Origin: Escherichia phage OLB35
Length of the DNA stretch: 64,000 bases
Strand: one strand, 5' to 3'
Sequence record: MH992122.1
In this document: piece after piece, positions 1-42,404 of the stretch
How the letters are laid out: each line of letters begins with the position of its first letter
How positions within the stretch are numbered: position 1 is the first letter of the stretch
Program-made: the position numbers and the translations under genes
The notes under the pieces: generated by a model
Databases searched by the model: none
Seen by the model: the letters and a program-made list of their open reading frames with translations, nothing else
What the model was told of the DNA's origin: nothing

Positions 1-1531
1 GCTTCTTTAATTATTTCACCATTACGTTGAGCTGCAAGCATGTAACCTTTATGTTCTTTACGTTGATTAAAGACCTTAGTGATTTCAGTTGGAACTACAC
101 CATCACGGTCTTTATAATACATCATGCCGTTAGGAGAGCAACTGTACACATCTGAAGGACGTTCAGCGATTGCGTTAATATAATCATGCAATGGAGCTAC
201 TTTAAACGTTCCTGCTATTGTTTCTGGGCTAATATTCACTTGGCGAATAATACTTGGATACAGAGATGTAAGGTCGAAACTCATTACATATTTGTATCGA
301 TTTGGAATAGGTTCCTTAACAAAAGCGCCAGGATAAGGTTGAACCTGGTGAGAACGACCTTGTGGAATCACCTTGTTCTGCTCTTTAAGGCTATTAAAAA
401 TAATAACATCCCATGTTTTAATTGGGCTAAACACAGATTGAATCTGTATCTTAGCATAATAACCCATGTCCAAACTCAAGTTTATGAACTGGCGTTTAGC
501 ATCAATTTGCAATACACGATACACGTCGATAATGTTATAAGAAATATATCGTTGGTGATTACTTTCACGAAGTTTAGAAATAGGACCGTCATATTTCAGT
601 TTACCGACATTCAATTCAAATTCTGAAATGTAATCCAGAGAATACGACGGTTGGTTTGTGAAAGAGAATTTTTTGTAAAGGTCGATATAATCAAGAACAG
701 AGATACCGAACAATGTAATGATTTCACGAGAACCGTACATGTTTTCAATAACTTTAACACGAGTCTTGCGATACTGCAAAAACCTAGATCATTGTCGGGT
801 GGTGATAAACGTTTCGCAGTAGATTCGCCAAAAATATTCTTGATTCGGTTATACACATATGGAATATCAAATGACTCAACGTTCCATCCAGTCAAAATGA
901 CAGGAGTTTTCTGTTGCCAGAAGTTGAGATATTCCATCAACAATTCTTTTTCGTTATCAAACGGCATATAAATGATTTTATCAATAATTTCGGATGGAAC
1001 TTCATCACCACCTTGTTCTTGAAGCTTAGCAGCGATTTCAATAGACCATTCTTCTACATTACCATATGGAGAATTCAATAGATCAAATACGTAGAACCTG
1101 TCGTCAATTGAGTCATAATGGGTGATAGCATCAATCGGATGTTTTGCTTGTGACGGCTCAGGGAACCCATCCGGAGATGTTACTTCGATGTCGAAGTTAG
1201 CCACACGAATTTTTGTATGGTCGTATTTGATTTCATAGTTATAAGTGTCAGACAAATACGCCAATTTGAAATCGTCCATACCTAATGCTTCAAGACCAAT
1301 ATCTTCCATGCGTTTAATCCATTGGGAGGCATCACGCATATTAGCGAACAACTTACGAGTACACGGCTTACCGTAGATATCGAAATATTTAGTAGCCTGA
1401 CTTTCTGGACAATGAGCAAACAATGATGGTTTATATTCTACTTCACGAGTACGTTCACGGCCATTAGAATCGATGTAACGTTCAAAAATTGAATCACCAA
1501 TCTGTTCAACCGTTAAGTAAAATTCTTTCAT
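1..1531 (-). CDS. 43: DNA polymerase gp43 (B-family), N-terminal ~500 codons; frame interrupted near 775-800; gene runs off the window start
   Basis: From ATG at 1531: MKEFYLTVEQIGDSIFERY...FDIEVTS...GESTAKRLSP, RB69/T4 gp43-like exonuclease domain. Below ~782 the polymerase continues in a different frame (RKTRVKVIENMYGSR...SLYPSIIRQVNISPE...) to position 1. Confidence 0.9.
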
Positions 1532-7156: not shown

Positions 7157-8172
7157 TGTGTTGCCTCAATATAAAGTTCGTTGGAATATTTGACCAGCGC
7201 TTCTCTGTCTTCGTCTGAGATATCCGGAATCGCGTCAATATATTCTTTAATGATATCTTGAAGTGATTTAATCTCGATTTCCTGGTCGTCATCAGATTCA
7301 ACACTGTTATCAACTTTAGAAACCATACGAAGAGAGTGAACTACTTTTTCAAGTTCAGATTCAAACTTAGTCAACTCTGAATCAATTTCTGATACTATAA
7401 CACGTACGGCTAGATTAGTATAATCAGAATAATTAATTTTGCCTTTAAACGGATAAGTGATTCGTCGATGCCATGTCGTTTCATTGGGAATAAATTCCAT
7501 ACGTTCAACAACAGTGTCAAATACCCAGAATCCTCGCGGATCGTTCTCATCACCTGCAGTAAGGGTCCATGGTGTCCCAATATATTTGACGTTAGCAGCT
7601 TCAGAGATTGTGTGGAAGTGGCCAGACCAGACTTGTTTATAGGTCTTTAAGAAATCAGGTTCAAGCCCATGAGACTTCATTCCTTTATAGAAATAAAAGC
7701 CGTTCAGTTCCCAGTGCCCAACACAGTACGCTGCGGAAGAAGTCTTGATGTGCTCTAAGATTTCACCTGTATTTTCTTCACACATCCACGGAACGATATC
7801 GATCAGACATCCGTCAAAATCTACAGTAGTTGGATGTTCGTAAATAGTAAAGTTTTCAAATTGAGTTAACAATTCAGAAACAGTGTTAGGTGTTATTGTA
7901 TTCTTAAACGCCATGTCATGGTTTCCTATCGTGACATGAACGTGAATGCCTGCCTTAGAAATCATATCAACTATTTCACGATTGAATTCCATCGTACGAT
8001 GTGTAATTGCTTTACGGACGTCAAACCAATCACCGTACTGAATCCAAGTTTTAATACCGTGTTTCTTAGAGTATTCAATTGCTTGACGAATACCATCACG
8101 TTGAATATCTTGAACCCATGGGTCGTCCTGTTTAACGCCGATATGGAAGTCACCTAAATGTAAAATTTTCAT
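7153..8172 (-). CDS. 47: Recombination nuclease subunit gp47 (Mre11/SbcD-like)
   Basis: MKILHLGDFHIG...GNHD phosphoesterase motifs, T4 gp47-like; the track ORF (to 8250) carries 26 extra N-terminal codons. Confidence 0.9.
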   Translation of the reverse strand: MKILHLGDFHIGVKQDDPWVQDIQRDGIRQAIEYSKKHGIKTWIQYGDWFDVRKAITHRTMEFNREIVDMISKAGIHVHVTIGNHDMAFKNTITPNTVSELLTQFENFTIYEHPTTVDFDGCLIDIVPWMCEENTGEILEHIKTSSAAYCVGHWELNGFYFYKGMKSHGLEPDFLKTYKQVWSGHFHTISEAANVKYIGTPWTLTAGDENDPRGFWVFDTVVERMEFIPNETTWHRRITYPFKGKINYSDYTNLAVRVIVSEIDSELTKFESELEKVVHSLRMVSKVDNSVESDDDQEIEIKSLQDIIKEYIDAIPDISDEDREALVKYSNELYIEATQ

Positions 8173-8218
8173 AAGTCTAACGCCGTTATCGCGATGCAAA
8201 TTAAAACCACAGAAATAA

Positions 8219-8244
8219 ATAAAAAAGGAAGCACTAGGCTTCCT
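8219..8244 (-). terminator. Rho-independent terminator
   Basis: Minus-strand GGAAGC-CUAGU-GCUUCC hairpin followed by a U6 tract, just upstream of the gene 47 start. Confidence 0.6.
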
Positions 8245-8416: not shown

Positions 8417-8455
8417 GCATAAGCACCTCTCAGAAAAAGCCACCTGTCCACGTTA

Positions 8456-29548: not shown

Positions 29549-29628
29549 TTTTATTTCTCCTCTAGTTGACAGGTCTATAGTAACACAACTAGAGGAGAAG
29601 TAAACCACTTTTTGATAGGAATTAACTT

Positions 29629-29905
29629 TTAAACTGCTTTAGATACTTCGTCACGAACCTGGTGGAAGTTCTTGAGCTGTTCAAGGCGTTGTTCGTAATA
29701 CGCAATCTCATCTTCTTCAAGACAATCGTCAGCGTCTTCTTTCAGATATGCCTTGTACTCATTAAAGAGGGCCCATAGGCGGTTCTCAAAGTCATCAAGG
29801 CTTTGAATTTTCTTGTGCTTAGGAACAAGGCTAAAAGGATTGCTTTCAGTTATGCTTGTGACCTTTTCTTATGAGTTCCAAATACCCAGTAATAGTAGAA
29901 GCCAT
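29629..29905 (-). pseudogene. Frameshifted ORF ([14 protein letters not shown] then frame change)
   Basis: ATG at 29905 runs 19 codons to a TGA; an adjacent frame continues ...[15 protein letters not shown]...[28 protein letters not shown]; break at the T4 run 29864-29867. Confidence 0.5.
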
Positions 29906-31062: not shown

Positions 31063-31634
31063 TGCATTCCAATCACAAAAAATTGAGGACGAGCATTACC
31101 GCCGATGCAATATTTGCTTTTGCAGCAGTACTGTACTGTTTTAATATGGACATTGTAAATCTTATCCATATCAGGAGCTTTAATAGGCTCGTCAATTATA
31201 TACAGAATACGAGAAAGCGTTAATCCACGGAATTTAGAACCTTCATTGCCAATAAAACTACGGACAGAATCAGTAAATAAACGGAATCGAATATCATCGC
31301 TAGAATAACGAGAAAATTCTTTTTCAATGTTGCCAGCAGAAATTTTAGCATAAGCTGAAGTATTAGAAAGAACAATAACTGTTCCACCATCATACAGCCA
31401 ATTAGCAGCAAAATTAGTCACAGCAATTGATTTACCTGATTGTCTGCCGCCGTCTAAACGAAGTGTACAGTACTGCTTGAGTACGTCTTCAAATGGTGGG
31501 ATATAACCGTTCTTACAAATTTCTTCTACTCTAGCATCAGAATGGTGTGTAAAAGCATTCATCAGGGATAGATAAGGTCCAGTTAAAAATGTTCTCATAT
31601 TATTTCTCTTAAGGTTTGGGCCATTCCGTGGCAC
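31059..31634 (-). CDS. Hypothetical protein
   Basis: 191-aa ORF; true start may be the internal Met at 31598. Confidence 0.5.
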   Translation of the reverse strand: MPRNGPNLKRNNMRTFLTGPYLSLMNAFTHHSDARVEEICKNGYIPPFEDVLKQYCTLRLDGGRQSGKSIAVTNFAANWLYDGGTVIVLSNTSAYAKISAGNIEKEFSRYSSDDIRFRLFTDSVRSFIGNEGSKFRGLTLSRILYIIDEPIKAPDMDKIYNVHIKTVQYCCKSKYCIGGNARPQFFVIGMQ

Positions 31635-32078: not shown

Positions 32079-32339
32079 TTAAGCTTTACCGCCAGAAATA
32101 ATTCCGAAGTTGTTAAAATCGTATCCAATATCGTCAACATCTACTTTAGGATTTACTACAACATAAGCAATTTCACTACGTTTTGCATAGGTGTTGATTT
32201 CTTTACCATCGCCACCTAAGAAAGAATACCCATTACGTTTTAATGAGCCAAAGTCTTCGGCATCACCAATTTACTTCGATAGCAGCTTTCTGTTCCGCAG
32301 ATAATGTACTTCAGTGATAAACTCTTGATATGTTTTCAT
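32079..32339 (-). pseudogene. Internal-protein-like gene with in-frame TAA after codon 22
   Basis: ATG at 32339: MKTYQEFITEVHYLRNRKLLSK, TAA at 32271-32273, then the same frame stays open to 32079 (IGDAEDFGSLKRNGYSFLGGDGKEINTYAKRSEIAYVVVNPKVDVDDIGYDFNNFGIISGGKA). Confidence 0.5.
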
Positions 32340-32817: not shown

Positions 32818-33099
32818 CTATTTTTCTGAAGCGCCTGAAATATATTTTTCAAGACGTTGTTTCATCAGCGAGCCGTTCTTAGCGATTTCTTCCGGTTTAT
32901 CGCACATACGCAACAAGGCTTCAAGCTTAGCGATATCACTGGTGCGCTCAAATTTGCGAGTATCTATCTTACTAGCAAGTTCAGAAATACGTGCTAATAG
33001 ACTTTCAGCTTCAACCAAAGCTGCACCTAGCTTAGTTGCAAATGTGTCAGTAGCTTCGTTAAGAATAGATTCTGATAAAAATTCACTATATGTTTTCAT
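32818..33099 (-). CDS. Internal protein (CTS-bearing)
   Basis: Starts [10 protein letters not shown]...; 93 aa; adjacent to lysozyme e. Confidence 0.6.
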
Positions 33100-33557
33100 A
33101 TATACGCTTTCCAAGTTCCTGTTTTAAATGTTGAGATTACGCGTTTCGCGCGATTAGGTGTCTGACGATACCATTTAGATTGGGCTAGATTTACTGCCGC
33201 TTCATCCCAACGTTTCTGTTGAAGCATACGAAGAGAATTAGTAAAACCAGCGACGCCTGCTACACCCATTTGGAAGACCATATTGACCAATGCACACCGA
33301 CGAACTGCATCTAAAGAATCATATACCGGTTTAAGTTTAGCATTAACGTCTTCATTAAATAGCTTTTCAGCCTCATCAAGGGTAATTGTACCGTTGCATT
33401 TACGACCGATCATTCTGTCAAGTTCAGCTTTAGCTACGGCTAAAGACGGGTTCTTTGTTACTAAATGGCCTATGCCAATCGTCCAAAAGCCTTCAGTGTC
33501 TTTGTATAAAGTCAGTCTAAGACCTTCGTCATTACGAAGCATTTCAAATATATTCAT
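33096..33557 (-). CDS. e: Lysozyme (endolysin) e
   Basis: [32 protein letters not shown]... matches T4 lysozyme; appears to lack ~9 residues near T4 positions 70-80. Confidence 0.92.
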
Positions 33558-34276: not shown

Positions 34277-34764
34277 CTCAAATTCCTGCATTCGGTAATA
34301 AAACGTTCAACTTCATTATTCTTGGCCTTTATCTTGTCTTTACGTTCCTGTAAACTACTTTTAACAAGATTAATAATGATGCCTATAGTACCTCCACCAA
34401 TAATACCACCAATAATACTTACGATAGTAGATGCTAATAAGATAGCGATAATATCTAATATAGCAAAGGCACTTACTTTAGTACTAAAAAACCACACCGA
34501 TGGTACAAATATAATCCATCCTGTTATCCATTGGCACTTATTGAAAAACTTTTCAAGCTCAGCTTGAGTTGTTCGTATTACTTCATCGATAGGTTGATAT
34601 CCATTAATGTATCTGTTCACGATAATACCTGCTGGTTTGTCGATTTTAAATGCTTGACATTGGTGTTTCACTAAATAAGATGGACATCCTGTCCAATCTA
34701 CTGAATAGTATGAAATACCTTCGTTGCCATCGTCTATATTAGACCAATATGTTTTGTTAATCAT
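34273..34764 (-). CDS. Membrane protein with glycine-zipper C-terminus
   Basis: 163 aa; two TM segments including IIGGIIGGGTIGIIINLV. Confidence 0.5.
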   Translation of the reverse strand: MINKTYWSNIDDGNEGISYYSVDWTGCPSYLVKHQCQAFKIDKPAGIIVNRYINGYQPIDEVIRTTQAELEKFFNKCQWITGWIIFVPSVWFFSTKVSAFAILDIIAILLASTIVSIIGGIIGGGTIGIIINLVKSSLQERKDKIKAKNNEVERFITECRNLR

Positions 34765-35450
34765 TACCAGCCTTCCATAGGGAATTCCAGATAAACTTGG
34801 GCATTGACACGAATTTCATTGGTGATCTTTTTAACTCGGTCTGTATTACGAGATACACGTCCGAACCAACGCCATCCATTACTAATTGCACGAGAACCAG
34901 TGTGCCATGTTTGCCAATCGAACTGAAGAAGAGTACGGTCTGGAGCTTCCCATTTCTCTAGTTCGCCTTTTTCAATTTTTTCGAGGACTTCTTTGTGCCA
35001 TTGGCGATAGATAAGTTCGCCATCAGGAATCTGACTGAACTCTGCAGTTCCTGTTGCAAAATGAGTAGGACACACGTCAGCGTTAACAAGACCAAGAATA
35101 TGTTCAGACAAATAGCGAGGATTGTCATAGTCAGGTTGTCCTGCAGTAATAAAATGTTGACCAACCGGAATATCCCGGCGCGGTACATCATCATGGTGAT
35201 AACCTGGAATAGCAGGATACCAACCAGGCATCAGCATATGAACCCGAGAATCAAATACAACATGTTGATTAGTCCAATCAATTGGGAGATTGACAATAAA
35301 GCTACGAGTAATAGGACCGCCGTTATCCTAAGCAAATTTTAAACTACAGTTAAAGAACATAGGCTCGTTCTTGATTTGATCATTAGAAATACCGCCGGCA
35401 AAACCACCTACTGCACGAGCTTGACTATTAAACACTTTAGAACTATTCAT
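34764..35450 (-). pseudogene. 229-codon reading frame interrupted by an in-frame amber codon
   Basis: ATG at 35450 (MNSSKVFNSQARAVGGFAGG...SLKFA), TAG at 35328-35330, same frame continues (DNGGPITRSFIVNLPIDW...) to 34764; the track sees only the C-terminal 157 aa. Confidence 0.5.
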
Positions 35451-37321: not shown

Positions 37322-37595
37322 TTAACAAGTGTGAGAAGATGCAACCCAACCACCATCTTCAAGGCTCAAGTTGTAGTCGTATTGGTAAACGTCGGCCCAT
37401 TCAGCATAACCGTTTTTTTGTACAACGTTCAAGATCGGCTTTAAGATGTCCTGGTGAATGATAGGTTCCACCCATGCCATAAGCTGGATACAAGTTGAAT
37501 GTTGTGTTTTGTTTATTAGCAATTTCTTTGGCAGCCTCAATAGCTGCATAGATTTTTGCTACAGCTTCAGCCAGTTCGGTTTGTTCTTTAGACAT
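37322..37595 (-). pseudogene. WVSSSxxC-tail family member 2, frameshifted
   Basis: N-terminal frame (37595-37401: MSKEQTELAEAVAKIYAAIEAAKE...YGMGGTYHSPG) and C-terminal frame (to 37322: ...NGYAEWADVYQYDYNLSLEDGGWVASSHTC) each match the intact paralogue. Confidence 0.5.
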
Positions 37596-41582: not shown

Positions 41583-41886
41583 GCCTTGCGGTAACCTTGT
41601 CGGGGTTCCACCTGCTAAGGCAAGTGTTTGTACGAAACGCCGGGATTCGAACCCGGTTATTAAGCAGTTGACGCTACTCAATATTTTTAAAAGGCCATAT
41701 CTCGACCATATCCGAACGTTCCGTCAAAAACGCTACTCGGCTTACGGCAAAGATATTTCCTCGAATCGATAATTCGGTGCGCCGTTTCTGCTGTGATAGT
41801 AAAGAATCAGAACACAGTAAAACTGTGGGAGAAACTATACTCCAGGGAACATCAGTCCGACGACTTACCGGTAGCGACCCGGTTTC
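41583..41886 (-). ncRNA. Non-coding stable-RNA region with a tRNA-like T-arm (possibly analogous to T4 small RNAs)
   Basis: No plausible minus-strand ORF; contains CCGGG-TTCGAAT-CCCGG plus a repeated GAGTAGCG; bounded by tRNA-Arg and the terminator. No cloverleaf could be folded by hand. Confidence 0.3.
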
Positions 41887-42249: not shown

Positions 42250-42326
<77 letters not shown>

Positions 42327-42329
42327 AAT

Positions 42330-42404
42330 TGGTGACCCTGGCTGGTTTCGATCCAGCTACCTATCAGTTATGAGCTGACAGCTCTCCCATTGAGCTACAG
42401 GGCC
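42330..42404 (-). tRNA. tRNA with anticodon CAU (Met or Ile2-type)
   Basis: Acceptor GGCCCTG/CAGGGTC, D-arm GCTC-AATGGGA-GAGC, anticodon loop CTCATAA, T-arm GCTGG-ATCGAAA-CCAGC, encoded CCA; C4-G69/C5-G68 fit an Ile2-type tRNA. Confidence 0.8.

Follow-up and report, generated by a model that had tools for sequence, protein, structure and literature searches.

The DNA polymerase gene of Escherichia phage OLB35 (gene 43; sequence record MH992122.1) is not open in a single frame in the 64-kb stretch analysed here (the window). The frame is lost through one clean insertion of 26 nucleotides (nt) in the codon for His245, at plus-strand positions 773-798, and the break is almost certainly caused by a unique ectopic copy of a segment of the tail-fibre gene 37 rather than by a slip in a homopolymer. 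What this copy means for the phage is much less certain. The reading that we prefer, with a probability of only about 0.38, is that the insertion is a genuine defective allele of gene 43, a mutational scar.

A 26-nt copy of gene 37 in codon 245 of gene 43

The window belongs to a T-even phage of the RB69 group (Mosigvirus), and its first 25 kb are about 97-98% identical to, and collinear with, the Escherichia phages CAU_ECP01 (PQ572755) and CCU7 (PV806175). Gene 43 is encoded on the minus strand, from an ATG at 1531 until it leaves the window at about codon 501, and the order upstream of it (regA, 62, 44, 45) matches RB69. The broken frame that the original prediction had reported for this gene is real: the minus-strand open reading frame (ORF) runs from the ATG at 1531 to a stop at 611-613, and the remainder of the polymerase lies in another frame. 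Codons 1-244 in the native frame (800-1531, minus strand) encode a sequence 100% identical to residues 1-244 of the crystallised RB69 DNA polymerase (PDB 1CLQ, 1IG9 and others), and this piece matches the Pfam domain DNA_pol_B_exo1 with E = 1.5e-20. After ...AKRLSP the ORF continues as PDNDLGFCSIARLV... and then stops, and the native continuation of the polymerase, RKTRVKVIENMYGSRE..., is open in a different frame up to the window edge. This second piece, which begins with the last two bases of codon 245 and extends to about codon 501 (1-772, minus strand, running past the edge), matches Pfam DNA_pol_B; a tblastn search with residues 241-501 of CAU_ECP01 gp43 gave 97.7% identity and zero stops. 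The domain content of a family B, RB69-type gp43 is present across the two pieces, and a single uninterrupted frame is absent. Because 26 is not a multiple of three, standard decoding gives a product of 306 residues, 244 native and 62 aberrant, that ends at the stop at 611-613 (minus strand).

When the region is aligned with RB69, CCU7 and CAU_ECP01, the inserted block (CCGACAAUGAUCUAGGUUUUUGCAGU in mRNA sense; 773-798, minus strand) appears as a single gap between flanks that are otherwise collinear, and the block enters the His245 codon after its first base (sense strand C^CCGACAATGATCTAGGTTTTTGCAGT^AT). With ten further relatives added, exactly one 26-nt gap is seen in 13/13 alignments, over 2.6-3.6 kb. 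The best 40 of 154 phage records covering the region all span 575 nt against 601 nt in the query, with no higher-ranking full-length match, and gp43 is intact at 903 residues in each of the ten public contigs that encode an identical gp62. Removal of the 26 nt in silico yields a normal, perfect gp43.

The allele is unique among the collections searched. No record with it was found among 154-210 phage records, its 306-residue product was not found by exact protein look-up in a large public gene-position collection, and look-ups with gp62 and with a 154-residue ORF returned only relatives with intact gp43. The exact insert was not found in IMG/VR, GTDB genomes, JGI metagenomes or E. coli genomes; these negatives are weak, in that a positive control recovered only one matching Mosigvirus gene 43 from IMG/VR. 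A gapped search of IMG/VR and the JGI metagenomes, of low power, found no gene 43 with any 8-38-nt insertion at this site. We found no literature report of such an allele in Mosigvirus, and the window holds no further copy of the block at up to three mismatches.

The source of the insert is found in the Mosigvirus gene for the distal subunit of the long tail fibre, gene 37, which it matches at 24/26 positions, end to end over exactly the 26 nt. In a sensitive search with the insert alone against 2.3 Gb, this match had E = 0.01 and occurred at one place per genome; the computed chance expectation of such a match is 2e-7 to 2e-5 per 169-kb genome. In CAU_ECP01 the donor segment is ccgacaatgGtctaggtttttAcagt, preceded by g and followed by tatgtt, and it encodes ...GG-ADNGLGFYS-YVTQ.... 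The copy has the sense orientation for both genes and hence is inverted in the genome, and on it the incoming frame of gene 43 coincides with that of gp37 (PDNDLGFCS vs ADNGLGFYSY in gp37). In the relatives, gene 37 lies about 43 kb away from gene 43. The donor goes on ...CAGTTAT, and a 27-nt copy rejoining at a shared AT would be in frame (...GFCSYRKTRV); the observed block is one T short of such a copy. There is no junction microhomology on the left, and the shared AT on the right serves only the 27-nt copy.

Other sources for the 26 nt were rejected. Host DNA gave no E. coli match, an adaptor or a CRISPR spacer did not account for the block (on manual check, the position of a Cas9-type blunt cut misfits the site), and introns of group I or II and inteins are all far longer than 26 nt; Rfam gave no match at the insertion site. 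As a separate observation, the 3' end of the insert (GGUUUUUGCAGU, 773-784) can pair almost fully with native gene 43 sequence that lies about 25 nt upstream (ACUGCGAAAC, 811-820, minus strand), and the two form a long-range stem in predicted folds, the overall fold not going beyond that of shuffled sequences (z = -0.65). This complementarity might bear on the capture of the block, or it might be coincidence.

These results change how the lesion is to be described. It had been placed at an A5/T5 homopolymer, and one base added to that run (plus-strand A5, T5 in the minus-strand sense, 778-782) does give a continuous ...SPPDNDLGFLQYRKTRV... with no stop; the insertion of about nine residues relative to RB69 that was deduced from this is also correct. 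What was inserted, however, is a 26-nt block of which the run is merely a part, its length unchanged. The donor gene 37 has the same T5 (ggtttttac), so the run is predicted by the template, and a T6 read as T5 would need an extra event. Nor is the run the only place where the frame can be repaired. A TGA in the downstream native frame (789-791, minus strand; its base at 789, G>A, accounts for one of the two differences from gene 37) sets the 5' limit of an 18-nt interval in which a +1 or -1 shift event restores gp43, and any single base added there has this effect; a T at AGT^AT, for example, recreates the donor AGTTAT. A simple homopolymer indel is ruled out both by the alignment, which requires a 26-nt block and not +/-1 base, and by the T5 of the donor. 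Sequence error, polymerase-null allele and frameshifting, the three causes offered by the original prediction, are all still live, the exception being homopolymer miscount, which is unsupported.

Base changes beside the insert and lesions elsewhere

Just 3' of the insert lies a tract with four silent transitions (735-768, minus strand): 768 CGT>CGC, 765 AAA>AAG, 747 ATC>ATT and 735 TAT>TAC. Three of them (765, 747 and 735) are absent from 13/13 aligned relatives, and the whole tract occurs in 0/210 records, the best having three mismatches in 93 nt. Over about 500 codons, gene 43 in the window has six codons unique with respect to the 13 relatives, five of them silent and one a replacement (A367V). 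The changes in the tract all fall within the 12 codons immediately 3' of the insert, with zero in the 160 codons 5' of it. This clustering of unique silent changes has p ~3e-4 to 2e-3, a value weakened to roughly a few percent by the other short unique divergent patches in the genome. The two changes in the insert and the four after it are all transitions and all at third positions of the native frame. We read insert and tract as one event or one imported patch, which may have arisen by copy-choice or repair in several steps, or through recombination with a lineage not yet sampled. Substitution-dense patches unlike any aligned relative are also seen at 8128-8240, 8438-8450, 34636-34663, 35370-35394 and 41776-41829; short patches of this kind are typical of T-even mosaicism with unsampled lineages and form the background for judging the gene 43 tract.

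The quality of the rest of the window was assessed by comparison with 115 coding sequences (CDS) of the nearest relative, CAU_ECP01, and all large or essential genes are uninterrupted save gene 43. In the approximately 27 kb covered by at least three relatives, one unique homopolymer indel hits an ORF: a T7 on the plus strand (A7 in gene sense) at 37406-37412, where seven relatives have six, frameshifts a conserved 90-residue ORF (37322-37595). The lysozyme gene e (33099-33557, minus strand) has a clean 27-nt in-frame deletion after 33344/33345 that removes DKAVRGILG; it has no flanking repeat and is unique with respect to seven aligned relatives and 155 phage records. The missing residues correspond to residues 72-80 of T4 lysozyme, at the end of the long inter-domain helix. 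In size and "cleanness" this deletion resembles the gene 43 insertion, to which it is unrelated in sequence.

The further broken frames that had been listed for the window exist as well, and they sit in small accessory ORFs. Besides the frameshift at 37406-37412, they comprise a TAG at 35328-35330 (minus strand) that interrupts a 228-residue ORF (34767-35450); a TAA at 32271-32273, together with small indels, in the ORF at 32082-32330 (minus strand; 84 residues in CAU_ECP01); and two TAA codons (29869-29871 and 29629-29631) in the ORF at 29608-29895 (minus strand; 99 residues in CAU_ECP01), which also has three 1-nt indels relative to CAU_ECP01. Where relatives have GCT TAT AAT or GCT TGG GAT, the window has GCT TAG GAT at the 35328 site, and this stop looks like a recombination junction inside a codon between the two allele types, or else a G>A change. 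The record is not riddled with random indels; its unique lesions are several and differ in kind, and two of them affect important genes.

Two further features were observed. At about 31319-31598 the window differs by a 1-nt indel (at about 31319) from a CAU_ECP01 gene annotated as two overlapping "endoribonuclease" CDS, and the frameshift may lie in this relative and not in the window. Two adjacent tRNA genes are found on the minus strand, at 42253-42326 and 42333-42404 (Rfam tRNA, 71 and 59 bits); the tRNA set of RB69 is similarly small.

Explanations for the broken frame

In the explanation that we tentatively favour, a 26-nt piece of gene 37 would have been copied in sense orientation into codon 245 of gene 43 as ectopic "filler", through break repair or copy-choice recombination in an infected cell, and the adjacent 36-nt tract with its four silent changes may have arrived together with it. 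Part of the exonuclease domain and all polymerase motifs would not be made, and a product truncated as written argues for a polymerase-defective allele and not for a programmed recoding site. Such a genome would need a helper or a mixed population in order to persist, or could be a non-viable variant captured by sequencing. The presence of unique lesions of different kinds in the window suggests a genome or a record that is not under normal selection, and their variety speaks for one mundane cause shared by all (a genome that is defective or complemented, or a record that is flawed) and not for dedicated decoding of gene 43.

Several observations weigh against a defective allele. Plaque purification should not leave a null allele of an essential gene as the consensus sequence. 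In the incoming frame the insert reads through without a stop, the other two frames carrying UGA and UAG. All but one of the codons of gene 43 that are unique to the window are silent, and the silence of the changes next to the insert implies that the gene was under purifying selection until very recently, or still is. In addition, the continuation of the donor as CAGTTAT means that the record may be one base short. Finally, gene 37 of OLB35 itself lies outside the 64-kb window, and the donor comparison is with gene 37 of relatives.

If the record had indeed lost one base, at AGT(T)AT or through a T6 read as T5, the insertion would be a real in-frame one of 27 nt. We consider this unlikely, though it is the best placed of the alternatives. 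His245 would be replaced by a 10-residue gp37-like peptide, and gp43, now of 912 residues, would be functional with a longer loop before its beta-hairpin. Either one-base addition opens the frame into native gp43, the donor ...CAGTTAT and the target AT predict exactly a 27-nt in-frame product, the incoming frame of the insert has no stop, and the flanking changes are all silent; the T7 vs T6 discrepancy at 37406-37412 is the one other unique homopolymer difference in the window. The loop at this site varies in length among family B polymerases. On one side of the insertion is a helix and on the other, six residues further on, the proofreading beta-hairpin (residues 251-262; PMC6153641); an in-frame version of the insertion might be tolerated and might affect fidelity. 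Nevertheless, two rare things would have to coincide. Indel errors are very infrequent elsewhere, so that a random one-base error in these 27 nt has an a priori chance of ~1e-3, and the scarcity of random indels in the record disfavours a chance error inside the insert. The T6 version needs a further change from the T5 of the donor, and no gp43 with an 8-38-nt insertion was found in IMG/VR or the JGI metagenomes (at low power) or among the 154-210 phage records.

Ranked behind this, and likewise improbable, is the possibility that the 26 nt are not in the phage, having entered the record as an assembly or consensus artefact (a chimeric amplification or library molecule) or by some other non-biological alteration. 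The insertion and the gene e deletion are both clean, lack junction microhomology, are unique among more than 150 relatives and fall in conserved, important genes. The transitions cluster around the insert, two inside it and four just 3', and the failure to find the 306-residue product in the gene-position collection also fits an artefact. However, when two loci about 43 kb apart have no k-mers in common and the junctions share 0-1 nt, an internal 26-nt patch of one in the other is not a usual product of assemblers. Otherwise the window looks like a natural, coherent Mosigvirus mosaic in which the large genes are intact, and the other short unique divergent patches in it are natural.

It seems quite improbable to us that the phage is viable and that incidental, "compensatory" -1 frameshifting yields enough gp43. 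The only tetramers in the incoming frame are U_UUU (GGU_UUU_UGC, 782-778) and A_AAG (GUG_UUA_AAG, 755-752, minus strand). A slip at the first would give ...LGF-LQYRKTRV..., and a slip at the second, as (G_UU)A_AAG, would give ...ARLVL-KVIENMYG... with re-entry at K251; the predicted junction peptides are LGFLQYR or LVLKVIENMYGSR. Each tetramer stands in the frame that is needed, and a slip at either one leads back into native gp43 no later than the beta-hairpin. In E. coli few tetramers are prone to shifting, and U_UU.U and A_AA.G belong to them (PMC4066793); there is also a report of (G_UU)A_AAG compensating a frameshift mutation close by (PMC5009743). RB69 and T4 gp43 repress their own translation (PMC6153641), and loss of this autogenous repression would raise translation of the gene 43 mRNA. 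A predicted irregular hairpin (724-771, minus strand; -9.1 kcal/mol) starts 6 nt beyond the U5 run on its 3' side and gains stability from three of the four unique silent changes (-9.1 vs +0.2 kcal/mol).

The recoding signals are nevertheless weak, and no dedicated decoding mechanism is indicated for gene 43. The hairpin is no better than shuffled sequences (z = -0.47; 57/200 shuffles fold as well), and 10%-23% of sets of four silent changes drawn at random bring an equal fall in minimum free energy (p = 0.10-0.23); as a stimulatory RNA structure, the predicted hairpin is present and not significant. There is no X_XXY_YYZ slippery heptamer in the incoming frame, and GGUUUUUG, which had been proposed as the site of a programmed frameshift, is just the U_UUU tetramer with no significant stimulator. 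A Shine-Dalgarno (SD)-like AGGU abuts the site, and an abutting position is not the spacing that favours -1 frameshifting. The tetramers alone work at about 0.15% in E. coli, against a background of 0.11%, and reach 0.26-5.6% only with a strong pseudoknot (PMC4066793). The site is not conserved, the allele being unique among relatives and searched records; T5 is too short for transcriptional slippage, and the other lesions of the window favour a common mundane cause. More doubtful still is the full form of the proposal, in which a viable RB69-like phage would make its polymerase only by low-level -1 frameshifting, loss of repression would boost the output and the three silent changes would represent early adaptive tuning of the hairpin. 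In that event, with the allele real and the phage viable, nature would offer an essential replication gene that incidental frameshifting has rescued, and a recoding site would have been seen at its very origin.

Any other rescue, whether by a gene-60-like hop from GGU (784-782) to the GGU of Gly258 or by a two-piece polymerase with re-initiation at UUG (779-777) or Met256, is very improbable. The two GGU codons are matched, exactly 50 nt apart from start to start and in frames that would restore gp43, and the bypass in T4 gene 60 has the same 50-nt spacing. Yet ten matched codon pairs occur at the site by chance, which could account for the coincidence, and the take-off codon is followed by UUU instead of a stop or slow codon, has no local take-off stem-loop and forms part of the 3' arm in a weak pairing over a long range. 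As for two pieces, Petrov and Karam reportedly described split gp43 genes in some T4-related phages, and the mutator phenotype that deletions of the beta-hairpin loop produce (PMC6153641) may also be cited in favour of a split. Against it, the break would cut through the exonuclease domain, UUG has only an AGG 3 nt upstream and Met256 has no SD sequence; the upstream frame reads through 62 codons without nearby termination, so that there is no coupling. Within the window, no homing endonuclease gene is seen next to gene 43 and no extra gene upstream of it relative to CAU_ECP01. Two cistrons were rejected, the second part lacking its own start and ribosome-binding site.

Comparison with known systems

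An apparent "homopolymer frameshift" in an essential phage gene is here a 26-nt ectopic insertion, and the reads should be checked before anyone annotates gene 43 as a pseudogene, "fixes" it with one more base or calls it a case of recoding. Homopolymer indel errors or mutations in phage genome records are one kind of lesion with which it can be compared. One base added to the T5/A5 run would restore the ORF, as in such errors, and the window has one genuine-looking discrepancy of this type elsewhere (37406-37412). The gene 43 lesion differs from them in that what is missing from relatives is the entire 26-nt block, whose donor also has T5.

What the split polymerases of the Aeh1 type have in common with gene 43 here is an interruption in a T4-like phage's gene for a family B polymerase. 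In those phages, according to what Petrov and Karam are said to have found, there are kilobase inserts and 43A and 43B are two proper cistrons, whereas the second part in OLB35 has no credible start or ribosome-binding site and the first part runs through 62 aberrant codons. Low-level "savior" frameshifting is known, for example in herpes simplex virus thymidine kinase with its G-run (PMC5009743). Gene 43 resembles such compensatory cases in having U_UUU and (G_UU)A_AAG in the right frame after a frame-breaking indel (PMC4066793; PMC5009743), and it differs in the lack of a significant stimulator, from which an efficiency near background would be expected.

The 50-nt bypass in T4 gene 60 (bioRxiv 10.1101/2022.08.31.505936; PMC5462505) offers a further parallel: both cases involve a short, non-coding-looking insert in an essential T-even replication gene, with matched Gly codons 50 nt apart. 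Gene 43 differs in lacking the take-off stop, the take-off hairpin, a known nascent-peptide signal, a linked homing endonuclease in view and conservation. Its insert is, moreover, a copy of gene 37 coding DNA.

There is also a likeness to the templated "filler" insertions left at repaired breaks, as in polymerase-theta end joining in eukaryotes. In OLB35, as in those repairs, a short block from elsewhere in the genome stands at a single point of an otherwise undisturbed gene, with a few base changes nearby. It differs in that the 26-nt block has no visible junction microhomology, no break-inducing agent was identified, and the repair mechanism is one that we infer. CRISPR-escape mutants of T4 carry small insertions and show minihomology repair (PMC8262927); the lesions there are deletions, point changes and 1-5-nt insertions, with no ectopic copy of 26 nt (PMC8262927). 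If the allele is what it most probably is, the insert derived from gene 37 provides a small, concrete example of templated "filler" DNA in a T-even genome, a type of event that is poorly documented for phages.

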